A model generated the notes under the pieces. It made no database searches, was not told the DNA's origin, and was given only the letters and a program-made list of their open reading frames with translations. Shown one piece after another: positions 24,983 to 35,609 of a DNA stretch of 44,651 nt. The position numbers and the translations under genes are program-made. The number at the start of each line of letters is the position of its first letter. Position 1 is the first letter of the stretch. The stretch covers positions 1 through 44,651 of IMG/VR virus record IMGVR_UViG_3300042691_019384; one strand, 5' to 3'. Origin of the DNA: a virus. Lineage: Duplodnaviria > Heunggongvirae > Uroviricota > Caudoviricetes.

Positions 24983-25936
24983 ATGTACCTGAAAGATTCA
25001 ACAATTAAAAAAAGATATTCCATTTTCCCAATCATACACAATGATTTATGGCAAATGTATAAAAAAGCAGAATCCCAAACATGGGTTGCTGAAGAAACTG
25101 ATTTGAGTAAAGATAAATTCGATGAACTAAAAGATAATGAAAAAACATATCTTAAAAACATCTTAGCTTTCTTTGCTGTATCTGATGGTCTCGTTATTGA
25201 TAACTTAGCAACAAACTTTTTAAATGAAGTTGAATTGTTAGAGGCACAATATTTTTATGGACACCAAACATTTATTGAACAAGTTCATGCAAATGGTTAT
25301 TCATTATTAATCGATACCTACATAAAAAATCTACAAGAAAAAGAAGATTTATTTAATGCGATGGAAACAAACAAAGCTGTATTTAAAAAAGCTGAATGGG
25401 CTGAAAAATGGATACAACACCCATCATTTCCACATAGATTATTAGCTTTTGCTTGTGTTGAAGGTATTTCATTTGCTAGTGTGTTCTCTGGTGTGTTCTG
25501 GTTTAGAAGTAGAAATAAAATGCAAGGTTTAGCAGCTATGAATGAACTTATATTAAGAGATGAAACATTTCATTACGAGTTCGCATTAAACTTATATAAA
25601 AACTATCTAAAAGAAGAATATAAGCTAAATAAAACAGAAATTAGAAATATAATTCTTGGTTGCTATGATGTAGAAAAAACATTTGTTGAAGAAAGTATGC
25701 CAGATGGTCTTCAAGGTCTGACAAAAAATGATATGTTAAAATATATACAATATGTTACAGATATCGTTTTAAATGACTTTGGTTGCGAAAGAGAATTTAT
25801 GGTCTCAAATCCACTTGATTTTATGTCAAGAATAGGTCTATCAACAAAAAATAATTTCTTTGAAAAAAGAGAAGGTGAATACACAAGAATTGAAATACCA
25901 AAAACAATGGATGGTATTTTTGATGAAGAATTCTAA
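24983..25936 (+). CDS. nrdB: Ribonucleotide reductase class Ia beta subunit
   Basis: W..EE.DLSKD, FFAVSDG, EQVHANGY (ExxH plus radical Tyr), EGISF and RDETFH motifs. Confidence 0.95.
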   Translation: MYLKDSTIKKRYSIFPIIHNDLWQMYKKAESQTWVAEETDLSKDKFDELKDNEKTYLKNILAFFAVSDGLVIDNLATNFLNEVELLEAQYFYGHQTFIEQVHANGYSLLIDTYIKNLQEKEDLFNAMETNKAVFKKAEWAEKWIQHPSFPHRLLAFACVEGISFASVFSGVFWFRSRNKMQGLAAMNELILRDETFHYEFALNLYKNYLKEEYKLNKTEIRNIILGCYDVEKTFVEESMPDGLQGLTKNDMLKYIQYVTDIVLNDFGCEREFMVSNPLDFMSRIGLSTKNNFFEKREGEYTRIEIPKTMDGIFDEEF

Positions 25937-25978: not shown

Positions 25979-25986
25979 TATTTATA
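25979..25986 (+). promoter_or_regulatory. Putative late promoter (TATTTATA)
   Basis: Motif 16 nt upstream of ATG 26003, right after a terminator. Confidence 0.55.
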
Positions 25987-26002
25987 TAAAAATTAATATA
26001 TT

Positions 26003-26842
26003 ATGAGCAAAGAAATGAGAATGTTTATGAATAAGTTTAAGAACTTATTAGAAGAACAACAAAATCACACTAAAATTGAGTTTAATAAAGAATTCTTAAT
26101 AGAACATAAATTAACAAAAAATTTTATTGAAAATAAAATAAGTGAAAAAGAATATATTAAAGAATTAAATTTAACAATTAATGAAAATATATTTTCAAAT
26201 ATATCTGAAAAAATAAACCAAAAGATAATAGAAGTGTTAAACACTTTTTTGTTAAACGCATCTAAAATAGGATTAAAAATATTAGAAAAATTAAAAACTT
26301 TTATTAATTGGGTATCAAAAACAGTTCTATCTTTTAGAGAAAAATACCCTGTAGTATTTAAACTTATTAACTTAACTATATTAGTTATGGTTTTTTTAAT
26401 TATTTCAGCTTCATTAGCATACGCTAGTACAACTAATCAACCAATAAGTGAAATGCATATAAATATTGCCATAGGTTTTATAATGGATATGAAAGAAAGA
26501 GGGTCAGAACATTTAAGAGATACTAACATGGTAACTAAAGCAATAATATATTTAATAAGATTAAGAGAGTCACATGGTGTTGTTAACCCAGAAGACATTA
26601 AAACATTTGGTGAGGCTAGTATAAACTTAGCTAATGGTGGGTTAAGAGCAGCTGAAGAAATTATTAAAGAAACTAATGACACACAGTCTAATACATTATA
26701 TAAATATTGTACAAATTTAATTAAAGAAGGTTCAGAATATGTTAAATATACCTATCAAACTATTTCTAACTATGATGATAGCGGCAATCTTATTGGAACA
26801 TCAGAAAAAATTAATTTATATAAAATGAGTAAAGAAAAGTAA
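26003..26842 (+). CDS. Hypothetical protein with one predicted transmembrane helix
   Basis: Hydrophobic stretch LINLTILVMVFLIISASLAYA; N-terminal LLEE/LIE/INE sites. Confidence 0.65.
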   Translation: MSKEMRMFMNKFKNLLEEQQNHTKIEFNKEFLIEHKLTKNFIENKISEKEYIKELNLTINENIFSNISEKINQKIIEVLNTFLLNASKIGLKILEKLKTFINWVSKTVLSFREKYPVVFKLINLTILVMVFLIISASLAYASTTNQPISEMHINIAIGFIMDMKERGSEHLRDTNMVTKAIIYLIRLRESHGVVNPEDIKTFGEASINLANGGLRAAEEIIKETNDTQSNTLYKYCTNLIKEGSEYVKYTYQTISNYDDSGNLIGTSEKINLYKMSKEK

Positions 26843-26843
26843 C

Positions 26844-27419
26844 GTGAAAAATTTAATTAAAAAAATATTAAGAGAAAATTTAAATGAATATAATGAATAT
26901 GATTCATTTTTATCTAACTACGAAACAGCGACAAAATACGCTTATGAAAATATAGAAGACGTTGCTGAATCTTTTGATGCGTATGAAGAAGATAAAAATG
27001 ATATACAAGCAGAATACTCTAGAGATAATTATATAGAAAGAATAGAACTATATGTTGATAAATATAATGAATTAAAAAACAGTAATAAAATAACAATTTA
27101 TAGATTAATTAAATTAAATTCTATAAAAGATTTAGATATAAAAGATATAGGTAAGCATTGGTCATTTGATGAAAATGGCGTTGGGGCATACGGAGAGCGA
27201 CACCCAAATATAAAAATGATGAAAACGGGTGAACCTTATATATTAGAAGCTATTATTAACCCAAAAGATATAGATTGGATTTATGGGTTTCATTCATTTA
27301 TTTGGTATGGTGAAGACCAATGGGAATGTGCGCTAAATAAAGGTACTAATGTGAAAATAATTAAAATAAATGGTGAAGAATTAAAAAAACCAATTAACGC
27401 TATTGTCGGAGACCATTAA
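26844..27419 (+). CDS. Leader-bearing putative ADP-ribosyltransferase-fold protein (R-S-E class)
   Basis: GTG start, MKNLIKKILRE leader; IYR (R87), GKHWS (S107) and QWE (E161) fit the R-S-E ART pattern. Confidence 0.5.
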   Translation: MKNLIKKILRENLNEYNEYDSFLSNYETATKYAYENIEDVAESFDAYEEDKNDIQAEYSRDNYIERIELYVDKYNELKNSNKITIYRLIKLNSIKDLDIKDIGKHWSFDENGVGAYGERHPNIKMMKTGEPYILEAIINPKDIDWIYGFHSFIWYGEDQWECALNKGTNVKIIKINGEELKKPINAIVGDH

Positions 27420-27423
27420 TAAC

Positions 27424-27933
27424 ATGAAAAAATTAATTAAAAAATTACTAAGAGAAAACTTAGAATCAAACAATAATATTAAAGATATATTAATTAAAAG
27501 AATCCCTTTTCTTAAAGAATATAATATATTTAAACACCCTAGAGACGAAAAAAGATTAGAAGCACAAAGAGTAGTTTATAATGAAAACGTAACAATGATG
27601 ATGGGTGATGAAATAATAAAATTCCCACAGTTAAACATCTCATCTGAAATCATTTATTACCCACATAAAATAAATGATAATACGTTTCATAAATTTATTA
27701 TAAAAAATCAATTTCATACAATGCAACCAAAAGAAATGGATGATTTAACATTTAGAGTTTTTATTATTGCGATGAAAGGTTTAAATGAAACCCTATCTTA
27801 TAATAAAGAAATAATGGTAAAAAATAATGAAGAAATACCAAAAAACGAATTAGATAGAATAATAAATGATATGAACAGAACCCTATTTAAAATAGAAGAA
27901 TTCACCCAAAAATATTATATTGATTTATTTTAA
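27424..27933 (+). CDS. Leader-bearing hypothetical protein
   Basis: ATG 27424 gives MKKLIKKLLRENLE, matching neighbouring genes; preferred over the track start at 27403. Confidence 0.65.
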   Translation: MKKLIKKLLRENLESNNNIKDILIKRIPFLKEYNIFKHPRDEKRLEAQRVVYNENVTMMMGDEIIKFPQLNISSEIIYYPHKINDNTFHKFIIKNQFHTMQPKEMDDLTFRVFIIAMKGLNETLSYNKEIMVKNNEEIPKNELDRIINDMNRTLFKIEEFTQKYYIDLF

Positions 27934-27948
27934 TAAAAAAAAAGATAA

Positions 27949-28842
27949 ATGAAACAACTAATAAGAAAACTATTAAGGGAAATTACCAATAATAATGAAC
28001 AGATTTATCTTTATCATGGGACTAGTAAAGGTGCTGCAAACAATATAAAAAAAGATGGTTATATTAAAACAAATAATGTTGGTGAAATAAAACCTTCAAT
28101 TAGCTTCACAAACGATATTGATTATGCAAAATATTATGCCATGTCTAAAGGTGGTAAAGATAGAATGGTAATATTAAGAACAATTTTAACTGATGATTTT
28201 GAATTGTCTAACAGAATAAAAAATAATAAAGGTGATGAATATATAACATTTGAAAATATCCCAGTAAATAAATTAGAAATAAAAACAAAATATGGGTGGA
28301 TACCTCTAACCAAATGGGATGTTATTTTTGACGAACTAATAACTGAAAACACATTATATAATGATGTTTTTAAATTTAAAAATGATTTATACATTAATGA
28401 TTTAAAAAAAGAATTATCAAAATATGAAACATCAGAACAATTACTTAGAAGTGGTGGTTTATCAATAGAACTATTAGATAGATTAGCACATGGTTTTTCT
28501 GAAGAAGATATTAAAACCTTAAAACCAAAAGAATTAAAATTAAAATGGTTAGCCGATTTGGAAAATGTTGTATATGAAATAGAAAAAAGCGGTTTATCAC
28601 CAAAAGAATGGGCTAAAAAAATAAACTTATCAGAACCAATTGATGTCTCATTTTTAAAAATTAAAAATAAAAAACCAGGGTTTTATATAGAAGATGGTCA
28701 TCATAGATATATGGCAGCAAAAATATTAAATAAAGAACTACCAATAAATTTAGAAATAAAAATTAACCCTATTGTAACAATATCACCAGATTTAACCTAC
28801 GATGAGTTCCATAGAAAAATTTTTGACACGTTTAGTAATTAA
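27949..28842 (+). CDS. Leader-bearing ART-fold domain fused to a ParB/Srx-like domain
   Basis: MKQLIRKLLRE leader; YLYHGTS (H23), SFT..A..YA and DEY (E97); LITE linker (130-133); C-terminal PIDV..FYIEDGHHRYMAAKIL. Confidence 0.65.
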   Translation: MKQLIRKLLREITNNNEQIYLYHGTSKGAANNIKKDGYIKTNNVGEIKPSISFTNDIDYAKYYAMSKGGKDRMVILRTILTDDFELSNRIKNNKGDEYITFENIPVNKLEIKTKYGWIPLTKWDVIFDELITENTLYNDVFKFKNDLYINDLKKELSKYETSEQLLRSGGLSIELLDRLAHGFSEEDIKTLKPKELKLKWLADLENVVYEIEKSGLSPKEWAKKINLSEPIDVSFLKIKNKKPGFYIEDGHHRYMAAKILNKELPINLEIKINPIVTISPDLTYDEFHRKIFDTFSN

Positions 28843-28915
28843 TTACCCATTTAACAGTACCACAATCATATATCTTATTTATACCTCTAGATAACATAAT
28901 TTCTGATTCTGACAT
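28832..28915 (-). pseudogene. C-terminal remnant of a phage homing endonuclease
   Basis: Hand-translated minus-strand peptide MSESEIMLSRGINKIYDCGTVKWVINY*, resembling the E.EIM..G..RIYDCG..KW terminus of Hef/Vsr-like phage endonucleases. Not in the ORF track. Confidence 0.5.
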
Positions 28916-28937
28916 ACACTTAATTATATTAAAATAA

Positions 28938-28965
28938 AAAAACTCTTTCGTTTGAAAGAGTTTTT
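28938..28965. terminator. Bidirectional terminator
   Basis: aaaaactctttc/gttt/gaaagagttttt, lying between convergent genes. Confidence 0.85.
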
Positions 28966-29001
28966 ATTAAAAAAATACGTAAGTAGTTGATAATCAAAAA
29001 A

Positions 29002-29490
29002 TCAAAAAAGGAGTATTGCTCTATCAAATCTTAAAGTTGCTGTAATTTCAGCAATACCATCATCTTCAAAAGAAAGGTCACCAAAATTAACGTTAGTTAA
29101 CATAGTACCATCAAGTAACCATTTTTCAACCACAACACCAGTAGGGTCAAGCATTTCCAATTCTACAGGTCTTTTATAACCAACTGCATAACCTTGTCTA
29201 CCAGTAATTGATTCTGAGTGTAAACGAACCCATTCCATAATAGCTTGAGAAGCTGAAGGTCCGATAGGGTCACGGAAAGTAACATCAATAGCTTCCCAAT
29301 TAAAACGACCCACAACCCAAGTTGAGGTATTTAAAAATGCTATTTCAGTTTCATTTTGTGTTATTGATGGTCTTGAAGCTGAAGACAACCACCATTGTTG
29401 AATACCTAAATCTGCTGGAAAAGTAATAAGCCACCTATTTTTTCTTTTAGGTTCATAAGGTAGTGGCATTTTCATGAGTAAATCGGCCAT
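29002..29490 (-). CDS. Tail tube protein (T4 gp19-like)
   Basis: YEPKRKNRW, SASRPSIT, GRFNWEAIDVTFRDPI, MEW..H..TGRQGY..YKR and EMLDPTG.VVEKW motifs. Confidence 0.85.
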   Translation of the reverse strand: MADLLMKMPLPYEPKRKNRWLITFPADLGIQQWWLSSASRPSITQNETEIAFLNTSTWVVGRFNWEAIDVTFRDPIGPSASQAIMEWVRLHSESITGRQGYAVGYKRPVELEMLDPTGVVVEKWLLDGTMLTNVNFGDLSFEDDGIAEITATLRFDRAILLF

Positions 29491-29664: not shown

Positions 29665-31146
29665 ATGAGAATATTAAAGAGAGATAAAACGACACAGGCA
29701 TTTATGCCAAATAAGATTCTAAGTAGAATAAAAGGTCAATCAAATGGATTAAAAATTGATTCTGATTCATTATTTCAAGAGGTTATACCATTGATAACGG
29801 ATAACATAACAACAACTGAGATTGACGAGATAATAGCGTTTAAAGCGGCTGACAAGATAATACAACACCCAGATTATTCATTACTTGGTGGTAGGATTTT
29901 ATTAAGTAGACAATCTAAATTAATTGGTAAAGAATTAAAACCAGTTGATTTAACATATGATTTTTTTGCTGCAACAACTTTTTTAACTAAATATTCTAAA
30001 AGAGATTCTAATAAAAACCCTATTGAATTACCATCATGTATGTATGAAAGGGTTGCAAATCATTTACATGGTGATAATGAAGAGTTAAGAAATAATTTAA
30101 TAAATGAGCTTAATTTAAAAAGAATTAATTTTGCCACACCAATTTATACCAATGCTGGTATTGATAAACGAGGTGGTATGATTTCTTGTAACTTAACACA
30201 TTTAGAAGGGGATAGCTTTCAAGAAATAGAAAACACATTAACGATGATATCAGCAGCATCTAAAGAAGGTTCTGGTATTGGGTTATTGGTTGACCCATTA
30301 AGAAGCAAAGAAAGTGTTGTAGAATCTTTTCAAGGTAATGCTGGTGGTATTGTTAGATTTGCTGACATGGTACAATCAAAAATGAGATTTTATAAACAAG
30401 GTTCTCGTTCTGGTAGTTGCGCTTTATATTTATCTGTTTGGCATAAAGATATTATTGATTTCTTAGAATTAACATTACCAATTGGGGATGAACAATTAAG
30501 AACACGTGATTTATTTACAGCTGTTGTAATAAATGATTTGTTTATGGAGAGATTAGAAACTGGTGGTGATTGGTATTTATTTTGTCCTAATGATATTAAA
30601 AAAGCTGGATTAAGACCATTATATGATTTATATGGTACTGAATTTAATGAAGAGTATGAAAAAGCTGTTAATCTAGGTATAGGTAAGAAAGTAAATCCTA
30701 AAGAAATATTTGACTCTATTATTAAATCTCAAGTTGAGAGTGGCAGACCTTATGTTATGTATAAAGACAACGCTAACAAAAGAAATATGCAATCAAATAT
30801 TGGTCCAATTAAAATGAGTAATCTATGCATATCTGAAGATTCAATAATAGACATAATTTTAGATAATGAAGAACATAAGGTTGATATCAAAACATTAAAT
30901 GAATTATTTAAAGTCAATAAGAATATATTAGTTAAATCTTATAATATTGAAAACGATATTATAGAATACAAACAGCTATTAGCATCAGCTATGACTAGTA
31001 AAGATGCAGAAGTTTTAGAAATAATAGATGATAAAACAAATAAAAAACTAATATGCACACCAGAACATAAAATATATACAATTAATAGAGGGTATGTTAT
31101 GGCTAAAGACTTAATTGAAAACGATATGTTAAAAATATTACAATAA
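29665..31146 (+). CDS. nrdA: Ribonucleotide reductase alpha subunit, N-terminal half, fused to split intein N-fragment
   Basis: ATP-cone-like start, FATP, MISC (C225-equivalent), GRSGSCALYL and GRPYVMYKDNAN motifs; ends MSNL followed by intein block A (CISEDS). Confidence 0.95.
   Translation: MRILKRDKTTQAFMPNKILSRIKGQSNGLKIDSDSLFQEVIPLITDNITTTEIDEIIAFKAADKIIQHPDYSLLGGRILLSRQSKLIGKELKPVDLTYDFFAATTFLTKYSKRDSNKNPIELPSCMYERVANHLHGDNEELRNNLINELNLKRINFATPIYTNAGIDKRGGMISCNLTHLEGDSFQEIENTLTMISAASKEGSGIGLLVDPLRSKESVVESFQGNAGGIVRFADMVQSKMRFYKQGSRSGSCALYLSVWHKDIIDFLELTLPIGDEQLRTRDLFTAVVINDLFMERLETGGDWYLFCPNDIKKAGLRPLYDLYGTEFNEEYEKAVNLGIGKKVNPKEIFDSIIKSQVESGRPYVMYKDNANKRNMQSNIGPIKMSNLCISEDSIIDIILDNEEHKVDIKTLNELFKVNKNILVKSYNIENDIIEYKQLLASAMTSKDAEVLEIIDDKTNKKLICTPEHKIYTINRGYVMAKDLIENDMLKILQ
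30826..31143 (+). mobile_element. Split intein, N-fragment (106 aa)
   Basis: Starts at Cys388 (CISEDSIID), contains block B CTPEHKIYT and NRGYVMAKDL..D.L, then stops; no endonuclease domain inside. Confidence 0.95.
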
Positions 31147-31153
31147 CCTAAAC

Positions 31154-31205
31154 ATAAATTGGTCTTTTTAATAAATTAAAATATTTATTAAAAAGACCAA
31201 TTTAT
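31154..31205 (+). promoter_or_regulatory. Perfect 23-bp hairpin abutting the endonuclease start codon, containing a TATTTATT late-promoter motif (31182-31189)
   Basis: ataaattggtctttttaataaat (31154-31176), a 6-nt loop, then its exact reverse complement (31183-31205); ATG at 31206. Confidence 0.85.
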
Positions 31206-32243
31206 ATGATAAAAAAACACACAAAAATAAATGAATTAATTAATAACAAAGATTTTATAACGTTATTTGATTCAGAATTAATTAAATATATTGATAAAAT
31301 AATAAAAGATGTATATCAAAAACACAAAGCTTTGAAAAACTTATATTTAAATAACGTATTAACATTTGATAATTTTAAGAATTGTTACTCAAATAACAAC
31401 ATATTAAAAATATGGAAGAACGGTAGATTTGCATGGCCTGATGACTGCGTTAATTTTTTTAAGGGTTATCATAGTAAAGGTAAATTAAGACCAGAACATT
31501 CTGAAAAGATGAAAATAAAAATGAAGGGTATTAATAGAGGCGATTCGTTTAGAGAAACAAAAAAAATTCAAAACTCTAGTATTAATTTTAAAATAAAATT
31601 TTTAAATAATAAAAACATAGATACAACATTAAAAACGGAAGATGAAATAAATAAATTATATGGATTAACAATTTCAGATTTAAGAAAATCAAAACAATAT
31701 AAGATAAAAAAGGTTAAAAATTTTTTAAAATCTAATAAATATTTAAATGAAACGATATTTTTAAACTTTAAGAATGAAATTAATGATATTAATATATGTG
31801 ATGAAAATATAAATACTATACACACAAAAATGATGTCAATAATATCAACTATTAGCATGAATAGGAATGAAAATATGGGGTCAACAAAATTCTTTAAAAC
31901 TGGTTTTATTAAAGTAAAGAATTGTTTAAATAAAAGTATAATAAGGTATAGAAGTTCTTGGGAATTTAAAACAATAGAATTTTTAGAACTAAATAATATA
32001 ATATATAGTTATGAACCTTTTTATATTGAAAAGGAAAACGGTACGTTATACTTACCAGATTTTTTAATCGAATATAATGGTGAAAAAATATTATTAGAGA
32101 TTAAAGGGTTTATTAGGGGTGTAAAAGGAAAATTAAATGAAGAAATGAAAATTAATGCCGCTAAAAAATATTGTAATGAAAATAAAATAAGATACGTATA
32201 CCTAAAAAAAGTATTAACAAACATAAATGAAATAATAAAATAA
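31206..32243 (+). CDS. Free-standing putative homing endonuclease, PD-(D/E)XK TnsA-N-like
   Basis: C-terminal YRSSWE..YEPF.I..YLPDFLI..LLEIKG..K..AA..C motif; NUMOD3-like RPEHSEKMKIKMKG; sits between the two nrdA halves. Confidence 0.75.
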   Translation: MIKKHTKINELINNKDFITLFDSELIKYIDKIIKDVYQKHKALKNLYLNNVLTFDNFKNCYSNNNILKIWKNGRFAWPDDCVNFFKGYHSKGKLRPEHSEKMKIKMKGINRGDSFRETKKIQNSSINFKIKFLNNKNIDTTLKTEDEINKLYGLTISDLRKSKQYKIKKVKNFLKSNKYLNETIFLNFKNEINDINICDENINTIHTKMMSIISTISMNRNENMGSTKFFKTGFIKVKNCLNKSIIRYRSSWEFKTIEFLELNNIIYSYEPFYIEKENGTLYLPDFLIEYNGEKILLEIKGFIRGVKGKLNEEMKINAAKKYCNENKIRYVYLKKVLTNINEIIK

Positions 32244-32244
32244 T

Positions 32245-32346
32245 ATGGGGATTAAAATAAGAAAAATCGAGACAACATTACCAGTATATGATTTAACGAT
32301 AGATGGTAATAATAATTTTTTTGCAAATGGAATACTTATCCACAAC
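32245..32346 (+). mobile_element. Split intein, C-fragment (34 aa)
   Basis: MGIKIRKIETTLPVYDLTIDGNNNFFANGILIHN, with blocks F and G, terminal His-Asn and +1 Cys at 32347-32349. Confidence 0.95.
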
Positions 32347-33339
32347 TGTGCAGAAATTTTCCAGGCCAGCTCACCAAGAAAAACATCTCAATGCACATTA
32401 GCATCAATTAATTTATCTGAACATGATGATATTGATACAATAGAAACATCAACAAAGATATTGGTTAGAGGATTAAATGAGGTTATAAATAAAAATAAAT
32501 GGAGTGATGAATGGAGCGAATCTGCTGGTTTAGAACAAAGAGCATTAGCAATTGGTGTAGCTGGTTTAGCTGATTTCTTTGCAAAGAAAAAAATATCTTT
32601 TGAAAGTGAAGAAGCTAAAGAATGGACACATAAGATATTTGAAACAATGTATAAATCAGCAATTATTGAATCAATGACAATTGCTGAAGAACTTGGTGTT
32701 AATTATCCAGCTTGGGAAGGTAGTTTATATTCAAAGGGTGAAACATATATTGAAGGATGGTCACCAAAACCAAATGGAGAACCAATACCATTGTATAACA
32801 GTTTGTTATTAGGATTAATGCCTACAGCTACCAGTGCGATTTTATTAGGTGTTTTTGAATCATTTGAACCTGTAACATCAAATTTATTTACAAGGCGTGT
32901 TGGTCAAGGTGAGTTTTTGGTTATCAACAAATATCTTGTTAATGAATTGCTTGAAAATAATCTTTGGGATGTTGAAATGATTGATAAGGTTATTAAGAAT
33001 AAGGGAAGTATACAGAACATTACTGAAATACCTGAAGAGGTTAGGTATAGGTATAAAGATGTATGGGAAATACCACAAAGAGTTTTATTAGATTTAGCTA
33101 TAATTAGAAACAAATATGTTGACCAATCACAGTCATTAAATGTTTATCATTCTGATGCTAAATATGGTAAAATTGCCAGTGCATTAATGTATGCTTGGAA
33201 AGGTGGATTAAAAACTGGTGTTTATTATACTAGAACAAAATCAAAGCTTGACACTAATACAAAATTAGCTTCAACACAAATAACCGTTACCAAAAAACCA
33301 ACCGACAGTCAATTTGAATGTTTTGGTTGTTCAAGTTAA
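32245..33339 (+). CDS. nrdA: Split intein C-fragment fused to the ribonucleotide reductase alpha subunit C-terminal half
   Basis: After HN|CAEI: QCTLASINL (C462-equivalent), RALAIGVAGLAD, LMPTATSA, QSQSLN, GLKTGVYY and terminal CFGC. Confidence 0.95.
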   Translation: MGIKIRKIETTLPVYDLTIDGNNNFFANGILIHNCAEIFQASSPRKTSQCTLASINLSEHDDIDTIETSTKILVRGLNEVINKNKWSDEWSESAGLEQRALAIGVAGLADFFAKKKISFESEEAKEWTHKIFETMYKSAIIESMTIAEELGVNYPAWEGSLYSKGETYIEGWSPKPNGEPIPLYNSLLLGLMPTATSAILLGVFESFEPVTSNLFTRRVGQGEFLVINKYLVNELLENNLWDVEMIDKVIKNKGSIQNITEIPEEVRYRYKDVWEIPQRVLLDLAIIRNKYVDQSQSLNVYHSDAKYGKIASALMYAWKGGLKTGVYYTRTKSKLDTNTKLASTQITVTKKPTDSQFECFGCSS

Positions 33340-33361
33340 AATAATAATAAATAACACAAAC

Positions 33362-33394
33362 AAAAAACCACAAATATTTGTGGTTTTTTTTTTT
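33362..33394 (+). terminator. nrdA terminator, also the first element of the cassette repeat
   Basis: Perfect 28-nt palindrome aaaaaaccacaaatatttgtggtttttt, with a run of 11 T. Confidence 0.85.
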
Positions 33395-33527
33395 CTTAAT
33401 GTATTTATTATAAAACATAAAAAAGATATGAAAAAAGTTGTAAGAATTAAAGAAAGTGAATTGGTTAATTTAATCGATAAAATTATCACAGAAACTACTA
33501 GAAAAAGAAAAATTACTGAAGGCGTTA
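33362..33527 (+). repeat. Cassette 5' repeat, copy 1 (terminator + TATTTATT at 33402-33409 + 33-codon leader)
   Basis: Aligns with 34446-34610; coding differences are mostly synonymous. Confidence 0.95.
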
Positions 33528-34411
33528 CAATACCAACAAAAGATGTTAGCGGTTGGTCATTAAAAGATAAATTAGAGGATGTACATGGTAAAGTTGGTCA
33601 AGGTTCTATTTTTGCTAAATCTATTGATGATGTTTTAAATATAGTTCAAGACACATTAAATAAAAGAAATGATATTGATAAAATTGCTAATACAACTGGA
33701 ACAGTAAATATTAAAGTACCAAATATTGGTTACAATTTGGTACTACCAATAGAAGATGCTAAAAAATTACCTAATGCTCAAGAAACTGAAGTTGAGAAAA
33801 TTGAAGGTCCTAATAAAATAAAAGTACCAGCAATTAAAACAACAGCACCAATAAACCAATTTAGAACAGATGAATTAACAATAATCGTTAGACCAAAAAA
33901 AGATGAAAAAGGCACTGCAATACCTAATGAATATATTGTATTATCCGCTTTCCCAGGAGACCCAAATATACCAAGAACATCAGAATGGGGTGGAAGATAT
34001 GCTGTTATTATACCTGATTCTAAAGAAATAAATGAAAATAAAAAAGTTGTAAGAATTAAAGAAAGTGATTTGGTTAATTTAATCGATAAAATTATTACAG
34101 AATCAAATAAAACTATTAGACAAATGATTAATGAAGAAGAATATTATCATAGAGGACAAGATGGAACTCAATCTGTTATTATTCCAGATAATTTAGGTGA
34201 AGTAAATTCTGAAGATTTTGCTTATGCTTTAGAATCTTATGGTCAAGGGTCGATGGATGAACGAGATTTTCAAGTCGGTGTAGAATATACAATTATTGTT
34301 ACATCTCAAAGTGGTGATGAACCCACTAAAGAAGTTACTTTTAAACTTAAAAAATCTAATGGCGATAAATTAGAAGTTGATAAAGATTCTATATCAACTG
34401 ATATTTTGTAA
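33428..34411 (+). CDS. Cassette 1: leader + domain A (possible RNase-toxin-like) + internal leader copy + domain B
   Basis: Start reassigned to ATG 33428 (327 aa) from the repeat structure; the leader sequence recurs in frame at 34040-34102. Confidence 0.75.
   Translation: MKKVVRIKESELVNLIDKIITETTRKRKITEGVTIPTKDVSGWSLKDKLEDVHGKVGQGSIFAKSIDDVLNIVQDTLNKRNDIDKIANTTGTVNIKVPNIGYNLVLPIEDAKKLPNAQETEVEKIEGPNKIKVPAIKTTAPINQFRTDELTIIVRPKKDEKGTAIPNEYIVLSAFPGDPNIPRTSEWGGRYAVIIPDSKEINENKKVVRIKESDLVNLIDKIITESNKTIRQMINEEEYYHRGQDGTQSVIIPDNLGEVNSEDFAYALESYGQGSMDERDFQVGVEYTIIVTSQSGDEPTKEVTFKLKKSNGDKLEVDKDSISTDIL
34040..34102 (+). repeat. Internal in-frame copy of the leader coding sequence
   Basis: aaaaaagttgtaagaattaaagaaagtgatttggttaatttaatcgataaaattattacagaa encodes KKVVRIKESDLVNLIDKIITE. 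Confidence 0.95.
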
Positions 34412-34445
34412 AATTATTGAGAATATAATGGTATTACACAAATGA

Positions 34446-34610
34446 AAAAAACCACAAAATTTGTGGTTTTTTTTTTTCTTAATATATTTATTATAAAACA
34501 TAAAAAAGATATGAAAAAAGTTGTAAGAATTAAAGAAAGTGAATTGGTTAATTTAATCGATAAGATTATTACAGAAACTACCAGAAAACAAAAGATTACT
34601 GAAGGTGTTA
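34446..34610 (+). repeat. Cassette 5' repeat, copy 2 (TATTTATT at 34485-34492)
   Basis: 34457-34610 matches 35181-35334 at 152 of 154 nt by manual alignment. Confidence 0.95.
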
Positions 34611-35056
34611 GAAACTTAGCTGGAAAACAGATTATTAATGAAGAAATGGTTTTGAAAGAAGATGCTTTAGTATTAAAAAATTACGGTAAACAATTATATT
34701 CTTTATTTAAAAAAGAAGGAGCGACACCACTTCTAGATTTTGGTGGTAAAAAAGTAACAAGTCCAGATGTTAAAAATCAAAACGTTTTTATTAGTGCTTA
34801 TGGTGATGTATTACATGTTGATATTAGGGGTGTTAATAAAGCTAATGCTCAAAAATACGGTAATTTAGTTGCTAAGCAATTTCCAGACCTAGAACTAAAA
34901 AAAGGATTAAGTGGTGAATATATAGAGATTGGAAGCGGATGGGGTGGTGAAGAAAAAGATTCTTATGCCAGACTTACCCTAGGTCCTAAAACAACAAGAA
35001 AGGGTGGAGAGGTAAATCCAAATCAAAGACCCAATGCACCGAAACCACAAGCTTAA
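34511..35056 (+). CDS. Cassette 2: leader + unknown cargo domain
   Basis: Start reassigned to ATG 34511 (181 aa). Confidence 0.75.
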   Translation: MKKVVRIKESELVNLIDKIITETTRKQKITEGVRNLAGKQIINEEMVLKEDALVLKNYGKQLYSLFKKEGATPLLDFGGKKVTSPDVKNQNVFISAYGDVLHVDIRGVNKANAQKYGNLVAKQFPDLELKKGLSGEYIEIGSGWGGEEKDSYARLTLGPKTTRKGGEVNPNQRPNAPKPQA

Positions 35057-35120
35057 CAACAAAAAGTTAGTGAAAATTTAAGAATAAAAAATTATTTTAA
35101 ATAACCTACCACAAAAAAAG

Positions 35121-35160
35121 AATAAAACCTCTAAATAACATTAGGGGTTTTTTTATTTAT
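35121..35160 (+). repeat. Cassette 3' repeat with terminator, copy 1
   Basis: aataaaacctctaaataacattaggggtttttttatttat, identical to 35570-35609; contains a hairpin and T-run. Confidence 0.95.
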
Positions 35161-35180
35161 TAGTAAATAAAAAAATAATT

Positions 35181-35334
35181 AAATTTGTGGTTTTTTTTTT
35201 TCTTAATGTATTTATTATAAAACATAAAAAAGATATGAAAAAAGTTGTAAGAATTAAAGAAAGTGAATTGGTTAATTTAATCGATAAGATTATTACAGAA
35301 ACTACCAGAAAACAAAAGATTACTGAAGGGGTTA
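35181..35334 (+). repeat. Cassette 5' repeat, copy 3 (half hairpin only; TATTTATT at 35209-35216)
   Basis: Begins at the centre of the terminator palindrome (aaatttgtgg); otherwise near-identical to copy 2. Confidence 0.95.
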
Positions 35335-35552
35335 TTAAGGAAGATGAGATTGGTATGTTCCACGACCCAAGAATGAATTCAATCCATTCTTTTAAAGACG
35401 ATGATGATAAATGGGAAAATGGTGCATTGTGGGTTAGAATCACAATGTTAAAAAATATTATAGGTATTAAAGATGATGAAATTGCTAAAATAAATGCCGT
35501 AAATTTAGAGAATAAAACTTGGGATGAAGTTAAAAAAATATTTAATAAATAA
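35235..35552 (+). CDS. Cassette 3: leader + short unknown cargo domain
   Basis: Start reassigned to ATG 35235 (105 aa). Confidence 0.75.
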   Translation: MKKVVRIKESELVNLIDKIITETTRKQKITEGVIKEDEIGMFHDPRMNSIHSFKDDDDKWENGALWVRITMLKNIIGIKDDEIAKINAVNLENKTWDEVKKIFNK

Positions 35553-35569
35553 CCCCACCACACAAAAAT

Positions 35570-35609
35570 AATAAAACCTCTAAATAACATTAGGGGTTTT
35601 TTTATTTAT
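35570..35609 (+). repeat. Cassette 3' repeat with terminator, copy 2
   Basis: 40-nt exact repeat of 35121-35160. Confidence 0.95.

Follow-up and report, generated by a model that had tools for sequence, protein, structure and literature searches.

Within the first 44,651 nucleotides of the virus record IMGVR_UViG_3300042691_019384 (the stretch analyzed here, hereafter the window), the gene for the large subunit of ribonucleotide reductase (RNR), nrdA, is spread over two reading frames with a third between them. We conclude with high confidence that this is a fractured class Ia nrdA, in which a mobile class 1 intein cassette lies directly before the codon of the thiyl-radical Cys and is itself interrupted by a free-standing endonuclease gene. 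Four lines of evidence make this the best supported explanation, namely the motif content of the halves, the uninterrupted relatives, the conservation of the split and purifying selection on the locus. The kind of element is one described before; the nuclease family that occupies it appears modestly new.

Inspection of the locus at 29665-33339 reveals three open reading frames (ORFs) on the + strand, which encode, in order, the N-extein with the N-terminal intein fragment (IntN), the endonuclease, and the C-terminal intein fragment (IntC) with the C-extein. ORF1 (29665-31146, +; 493 amino acids, aa) reads ...GPIKMSNL/CISEDS...MLKILQ and then stops, where a slash marks the junction of extein and intein. 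Its first 387 residues (29665-30825, +) form the N-extein, which comprises the ATP-cone, the all-alpha domain and the first half of the barrel according to Pfam and an alignment to human RRM1 (3hnc), and which ends in SNL with the catalytic Asn. The 106 residues that follow, together with a TAA stop (30826-31146, +), are IntN, recognized by its sequence (Cys1 in CISEDS, TPEH of block B), by the Intein_splicing profile and by its nearest solved structure, the NrdJ-1 intein 8ubs (E 2.3e-14 over residues 15-103). ORF3 (32245-33339, +; 364 aa) reads MGIKIRK...GILIHN/CAEIFQ... and opens with the 34 residues of IntC (32245-32346, +), whose blocks F and G (...NFFANGILIHN) are supported by sequence, by the same profile and by matches to the C-terminal blocks of solved inteins. 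The 330-residue C-extein and its stop (32347-33339, +) begin at the +1 Cys (CAE) and are assigned from the Ribonuc_red_lgC profile and an alignment to human RRM1 (2wgh). Pfam thus places on ORF1 the ATP-cone, Ribonuc_red_lgN and positions 2-213 of Ribonuc_red_lgC, then positions 1-93 of Intein_splicing, and on ORF3 positions 125-155 of Intein_splicing, then positions 212-523 of Ribonuc_red_lgC.

Between the two halves, an RNA hairpin of 23 bp that contains ATATTTAT (31154-31205, +) precedes ORF2 (31206-32243, +; 345 aa), a free-standing putative homing endonuclease recognized by a conserved PD-(D/E)xK motif and an AlphaFold2 (AF2) model. A single base separates the endonuclease stop codon from the ORF3 ATG, and a terminator-like hairpin with a 12-bp stem and a T-run (33362-33389, +) closes the three-gene unit. 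A preliminary description, made by reading the DNA alone, had given the N-half as ending SNL/CISEDS with a 106-aa IntN and a stop, the C-half as a 34-aa IntC ending in HN before CAEI, and the joined protein as 387 + 330 = 717 aa; the sequences of ORF1 and ORF3 agree with it exactly.

The joined product would have the features of a class Ia NrdA: the ATP-cone, the Asn/Cys/Glu set, a redox Cys pair, the YY path, a C-terminal Cys pair and an NrdB partner. Aligned to human RRM1, SNL-C falls on N427 and C429, with N386 of the N-extein matching the catalytic Asn, the next Glu falls on E431, C175 on C218 and C50 of ORF3 on C444. The C-extein contributes the thiyl-radical Cys as its +1 residue, the YY pair for radical transfer (in GVYYTR) and CFGC near its C terminus. 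When viral contigs were scanned with the C-extein, 80 loci at 75-84% identity were recovered; the junction was compared at 72 loci whose exteins are complete (75-87% identical), among them the window and two additional assemblies. At 62 of these 72 loci nrdA is uninterrupted, and residue 1 of the C-extein comes immediately after extein residue 387 (...QSNL/CIEV...) with no insertion or deletion (indel). Because the uninterrupted relatives run through SNL/C in this way, exact excision of the 140-aa intein would yield a native 717-aa NrdA, and among the sequence comparisons made they argue most strongly that the joined product would be a proper NrdA. The earlier proposals that splicing would restore the SNL-C-AEI of the native enzyme and that the +1 nucleophile is the catalytic Cys are both supported, the first by the match of all 62 relatives at the junction and the second by the alignment to human C429.

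Each of the residues used in class 1 splicing is kept by the intein pair (Cys1, TPEH, the terminal HN and the +1 Cys). The Cys of CISEDS is residue 1 of IntN, a CTPEH with the TxxH of block B occupies its residues 77-81, and the terminal His-Asn and the Cys of ...GILIHN/C occupy residues 33-35 of ORF3. The two fragments reside on separate polypeptides, one with its own stop (ORF1) and the other with its own start (ORF3). Relative to two cassette-bearing relatives (L003 and L008), the ratio of nonsynonymous to synonymous substitution rates (dN/dS) is 0.10-0.15 for IntN, IntC and the exteins alike, and 0.23-0.32 for the endonuclease; the intein halves appear to be under constraint as tight as that on the enzyme. 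Association of the halves was addressed with a complex model of IntN carrying five extein residues and IntC carrying eleven. The modeled pair scored 0.85, the best of 3 controls scored 0.00, and the runs agreed in at least 92% of contacts with a partner predicted local distance difference test score (pLDDT) of at least 74. The 0.85 mark is reached by 51 of 78 solved complexes and by 2 of 108 mismatched pairs. Trans-splicing is further supported by homology, in that the NrdA-2 intein at the same site splices in cis and in trans (Pinto et al. 2020). By these measures the pair looks functional and would be expected to undergo ordinary trans-splicing.

Since the +1 nucleophile is the radical Cys, and since the HINT domain would otherwise lie between the Asn and the Cys of the active-site loop, NrdA activity very probably requires splicing. 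The same geometry bears on whether the halves might simply assemble non-covalently through their intein fragments, giving a two-chain NrdA with no splicing, as in the intein-less Aeh1 system. Split NrdA can be active as two chains in Aeh1 (PMC3045599), and the predicted IntN-IntC association is strong; the 140-aa HINT domain in the active-site loop, the retention of every catalytic splicing residue, the equal constraint on intein and extein and the splicing of the NrdA-2 homologue nevertheless make a two-chain enzyme improbable. More improbable again is a decaying, non-functional nrdA in a phage that relies on another RNR. The interrupted form is indeed the minority state among relatives, but none of the three ORFs is broken, no catalytic residue of NrdA is missing, dN/dS is ~0.1-0.15 in both exteins, and nrdB is intact.

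Several points count against a fractured but working nrdA. The dN/dS ratios are rough, given a dS near 1, and the success of the complex model may reflect only a likeness to solved split inteins such as NrdJ-1 (8ubs). None of the three ORFs is preceded by a visible Shine-Dalgarno sequence, which bears on how the C-half would be translated while the endonuclease is repressed. Splicing, RNR activity and endonuclease cleavage at the window locus are predicted from sequence and models.

The split itself recurs widely. The same three-gene layout is present in more than 10 contigs (L003, L005-L008, L010, L011, L039, L062, L095 and L096) drawn from independent JGI, ENA, Logan, NCBI and IMG/VR assemblies that were built with different pipelines. 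Their contexts are T4-like in L003, L008, L010, L039 and L062, include a family A DNA polymerase in L005, L006 and L011, and are of other kinds in L007, L095 and L096. In addition, a terminal IntN of 105-109 aa directly follows SNL or SQM in 27 database proteins, and identical 493-aa proteins were predicted on six contigs. These data leave very little room for an artefact of assembly or gene calling, in which a contiguous intein containing an endonuclease domain would only look split; we consider this the least probable of the alternatives. The record is a metagenomic assembly, which is what such an artefact would call for; the layout, however, is repeated by different assemblers in different samples with the stop at the same position. 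Nor can the locus be a misread contiguous intein, because ORF1 and ORF3 share one frame and the middle ORF lies in another, behind the TAA stop and a 59-nt non-coding spacer. The suggestion in the preliminary description that the gene is naturally split thus stands.

A further intein and a possible one were noted in relatives. A protein with an IntN 93% identical to that of the window (P0003, 636 aa) carries a second, contiguous mini-intein at ...GGMIS/C...VIVHN/CNLTHLEG; this site, at the redox-active Cys equivalent to window C175, is empty in the window. In L011, whose nrdA is fractured, the DnaB-like helicase gene (896-2002) encodes a 368-aa product with HINT/intein matches and may be a further intein-interrupted or split replication gene of the same genome.

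For the fractured nrdA of the window, the following sequence of events is proposed. IntN and IntC would associate into a HINT fold and splice in trans through an N-S acyl shift at Cys1, attack by the +1 Cys, cyclization of the Asn and an S-N shift. The native 717-aa NrdA would then be released with its SNL-C-AE active-site loop and would work with the NrdB encoded in the window; the tryptic junction peptide of the spliced protein would be MSNLCAEIFQASSPR. The PD-ExK endonuclease would cut the cassette-free nrdA of co-infecting phages, and repair would copy the whole cassette into the cut allele. The 23-bp hairpin at the endonuclease start codon would keep translation low or late, as for mobE of Aeh1.

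Fractured genes of this type were reported by Dassa et al. 2009 (PMC2677866) at 26 loci from the Global Ocean Sampling metagenomes, NrdA-1 to NrdA-7 among them. The insertion site, the layout and the hairpin before the endonuclease were all published there, in keeping with the earlier statement that the architecture is known. The closest comparison is NrdA-2, with the junction SNL/CNE, which gave ~75-98% cis-splicing, spliced in trans in vitro, and proved orthogonal to eleven other split-intein constructs, NrdJ-1 included (Pinto et al. 2020, PMC7090010). The window locus resembles NrdA-2 in its host gene and in its insertion directly N-terminal to the thiyl-radical Cys (SNL/C). IntN is 106 aa in both, and IntC is listed at 33 aa for NrdA-2, compared with 34 aa including the initial Met here. 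In loci of the NrdA-2 type, too, the halves flank an endonuclease gene that is encoded on their strand and preceded by a hairpin. Homology extends along the sequence, for example in AEVLEIID...CTP[DE]HK[IV]YT[IL]NRGYV.AKDL. Identity amounts to 48 of 106 residues for IntN (~45%) and to 20 of 34 residues for IntC when an initial Met is assumed, or 19 of the 33 listed residues (~58%), all of these being approximate values from a hand alignment to the machine-read Supplementary Table 3 of Pinto 2020.

Other differences from the published systems concern the junction, the spacer and the nuclease. The C-extein starts with CAE in the window and with CNE in NrdA-2, the spacer is 59 nt as opposed to 27-51 nt in the loci of Dassa 2009, and the endonuclease is of the PD-ExK type where those loci have GIY-YIG or Vsr-like enzymes. 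NrdJ-1 (8ubs, 9omb) belongs to the same intein lineage and is split at the same position; in contrast to the window pair, it resides in a class II RNR, is inserted one residue downstream (NPC/S) and uses a +1 Ser. The likeness to NrdA-2 and NrdJ-1 that the preliminary description had noted therefore holds, through the shared SNL/C junction and IntN length for NrdA-2 and the 8ubs match for NrdJ-1. Judged by the hand alignment, the window pair belongs to the NrdA-2 family as a divergent relative inserted at the same position, and is not a new kind of element. A further parallel comes from Aeromonas phage Aeh1, where the phage nrdA is likewise broken by a free-standing endonuclease gene (mobE, HNH; PMC3045599). 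There the halves have no intein and remain two chains, whereas the intein fragments of the window should rejoin its halves covalently.

Inspection of the endonuclease reveals an N-terminal helical region, presumed to bind DNA, followed by a PD-(D/E)xK nuclease domain that occupies approximately residues 230-345 at the C-terminal end. Protein searches returned 25 relatives of ORF2 at 41-71% identity, all of 343-423 aa, and a profile search returned 1107 cluster representatives at E <= 0.001, 26 of them at E <= 1e-30. A locus search of viral contigs with the endonuclease gave no confirmed locus, and relatives were reached through the protein searches. All relatives whose context was fetched sit between the halves of intein-bearing genes, most of them in nrdA. 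The family is not confined to nrdA, because in L097 (934-3432) a member (E 1e-28 to the profile) lies directly 5' of another gene, whose 496-aa product belongs to an unknown family and has a faint intein match.

Across 21 ORF2 homologues, E270, P284-D285, E298 and K300 are invariant and make up a canonical PD-(D/E)xK site. No invariant or near-invariant His is found in the nuclease domain of these homologues, which have the invariant Lys of ExK instead, and no Vsr, GIY-YIG, HNH or LAGLIDADG Pfam match occurs in the 21 family members. Sub-threshold Pfam matches point to Phage_endo_I in 15 of 21 members and to TnsA-like_N in 13 of 21; the scores of 22.9 bits for PF08722 (cut-off 26.5) and of ~19-20 bits for PF05367 (cut-off 29.1) both fall below the curated cut-offs. 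A NUMOD3-like motif was also considered in the endonuclease and was set aside for want of Pfam support. The AF2 model of ORF2 has a pLDDT of 87. A Foldseek search of the PDB with this model returned nothing at E <= 0.001, and VIA-align ranked TnsA first (1t0f, Z 8.8, root-mean-square deviation 2.8 over 104 residues), followed by Vsr (1cw0, Z 7.0) and I-Bth0305I (3r3p, Z 6.6). These fold matches cover mainly residues 223-345 and barely probe the N-terminal 225 residues.

The nuclease can be compared with two sets of enzymes. The EDxHD enzymes, with I-Bth0305I as their prototype (3r3p; PMC3239194), share both the niche between split-intein halves and the restriction-endonuclease-like core. ORF2 and its family differ in the invariant E..PD..ExK, the lack of an invariant nuclease-domain His and the lack of a Pfam Vsr match. 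Fold does not discriminate ORF2 from Vsr and I-Bth0305I, because all share the same core; the catalytic motif, as conserved in the alignment, does set ORF2 apart from the Vsr-like EDxHD enzymes. To TnsA of Tn7 and endonuclease I of phage T7, the likeness lies in the catalytic motif on an alpha-beta-beta-beta-alpha-beta core and in the fold of the C-terminal 115 residues. Sequence similarity to these two is marginal and below the Pfam cut-offs, the N-terminal 225 residues have no recognized relative, and the role proposed for ORF2 is homing, as opposed to transposition (TnsA) or junction resolution (endonuclease I). Since the fractured-gene endonucleases reported in 2009 (PMC2677866) and 2011 are only of the GIY-YIG and Vsr-like (EDxHD) types, an E..PD..ExK enzyme resembling TnsA and endonuclease I would be modestly new, a third nuclease family exploiting the split-intein niche. 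No paper joining a TnsA-like nuclease with split inteins was found in a literature search that did not extend to subscription journals and argues only weakly for novelty.

The hairpin upstream of ORF2 is a perfect 23-bp stem, and its 3' arm runs up to the last base preceding the ATG. Its minimum free energy (MFE) is -25.2 kcal/mol (z -9.9), and none of 200 shuffles was as stable. Hairpins that abut the ATG and carry compensatory changes are found in the relatives L003, L008/L039, L062 and L007. Of 16 fractured loci in Dassa 2009 (PMC2677866), 15 have a hairpin ahead of the endonuclease start codon, and in Aeh1 translation of mobE is restrained by a hairpin that holds a late-promoter-like motif (PMC3045599). 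The window hairpin fits that mobE model in the form in which Dassa 2009 cites it, and probably exerts translational or timing control over the endonuclease gene. Relatives keep ATATTTAT ~15-20 nt before the endonuclease ATG. Across the window the octamer TATTTATT is not enriched (34 matches where 26.5 are expected; 7 of 100 shuffles reached 34), so the case for a late promoter inside the hairpin comes only from the positional conservation of ATATTTAT in relatives. We regard ATATTTAT as a candidate late promoter.

Presence and absence of the cassette vary among the 72 loci, of which 62 are empty, 5 carry the cassette type of the window (type A) and 5 carry a different one (type B). The window, L062 and the group of L003, L008 and L039 take separate places among empty-site alleles when a tree is built from the concatenated exteins. 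The type A cassette needs 4 gains or losses on this tree, and well-supported branches force at least 3. One empty allele, L047, groups with three cassette-bearing alleles (L003, L008 and L039) in a set of four that is starred (98% in the Shimodaira-Hasegawa-like approximate likelihood ratio test, SH-aLRT). The exteins of L047 and L039 differ at ~3.4-4.7% of DNA positions, and the mismatches are denser in the first 240 nt 3' of the insertion point (22 mismatches, versus ~2-3% further on). This clustering is a weak hint of a co-conversion tract left by recent homing or loss.

Type B is a different split intein found in five close relatives whose exteins are ~80% identical. It is inserted one codon downstream, at SNLC/C, which is the NrdJ-type position, and its junctions read SNLC/CLDGET...VLVHN/CEIF. 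In L031 (2877-4500), L041 (2824-4500) and L044, which is identical to L041 in its exteins, a gap of ~1.2-1.3 kb separates the intein halves. The gap ORF in L031 and L041 has ~400 codons and a product that begins MRYYVYVLLDD and looks GIY-YIG-like by eye only. An 85-aa remnant of this ORF is left in L069 (3827-4500), and L036 (4071-4500) has no endonuclease and a spacer of only 13 nt. The series L031/L041, L069 and L036 looks like a stepwise decay of the endonuclease. Among more distant relatives, L012 combines a related split intein (IntN 51-52% identical) and a GIY-YIG gene that Pfam confirms, the split intein of L014 lacks an endonuclease, and P0028 has a contiguous mini-intein at the same site. 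Read from their sequences, the relatives together represent all stages of the gene-breaking cycle set out in 2009, and within one phage clade the empty site and the split intein with endonuclease, with a remnant and with no endonuclease are all documented. As an observation apart from nrdA, L012 also encodes a 448-aa product (689-2035) with RecA_N, weak DUF559 and faint Vsr matches; it adjoins a RecA-like gene fragment, and the locus may be a UvsX/RecA gene that a Vsr-like endonuclease interrupts or has fused with.

A bolder reading combines these observations. The TnsA-like PD-ExK protein may found an undescribed homing lineage specialized for split-intein gaps. This lineage has ~1100 cluster representatives, was met here in nrdA from several types of phage and in at least one other gene that bears an intein, and would carry intein and endonuclease together into empty nrdA alleles; the pair may, moreover, be a fast splicer orthogonal to both NrdA-2 and NrdJ-1. 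We put this forward tentatively, as somewhat more likely to fail than to hold. The understanding of such elements is unchanged by the locus. The kind is already known and exploited. For protein chemists, the window adds to the NrdA-2/NrdJ-1 lineage a natural split-intein pair with a +1 Cys that is a candidate ligation tool.

The phage that carries the fractured nrdA is an uncultured, T4-like jumbo phage. The IMG/VR record, of which the window covers the first 44.6 kb, is 108.6 kb long and has a CheckV completeness of ~31%, and the phage must be very large because 108.6 kb is rated as so small a fraction of it. Window G+C content is ~27%. T4-like genes surround the locus, encoding a gp32-type single-stranded DNA-binding protein, UvsX, an exonuclease, a DnaB-like helicase, NrdB, a tail tube protein and baseplate wedge proteins. 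A DNA search of a phage collection returned as its sole match a 156-bp stretch of nrdE from a Bacillus phage, and no annotated near relative was present there. The gene for the class I RNR small, radical-generating subunit, nrdB (24983-25936, +), is intact and lies 4 kb upstream of the fractured nrdA; it matches PF00268 at 268 bits, above the curated cut-off, and PHROG 86 (ribonucleoside diphosphate reductase small subunit) at E 2.7e-48.

Gene order around nrdA was also compared. In the relatives L003, L008 and L010, nrdB lies directly 5' of nrdA and gp25 directly 3'. In the window both junctions are filled, the one between nrdB and nrdA at 25979-29490 and the one between nrdA and gp25 at 33314-35590. 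The filling genes have common short N-terminal leaders (MKxLIKKLLRE... and MKKVVRIKESELVNLIDKIITE...) on unrelated bodies, and to these is added a tail tube gene on the reverse strand at 29002-29490.

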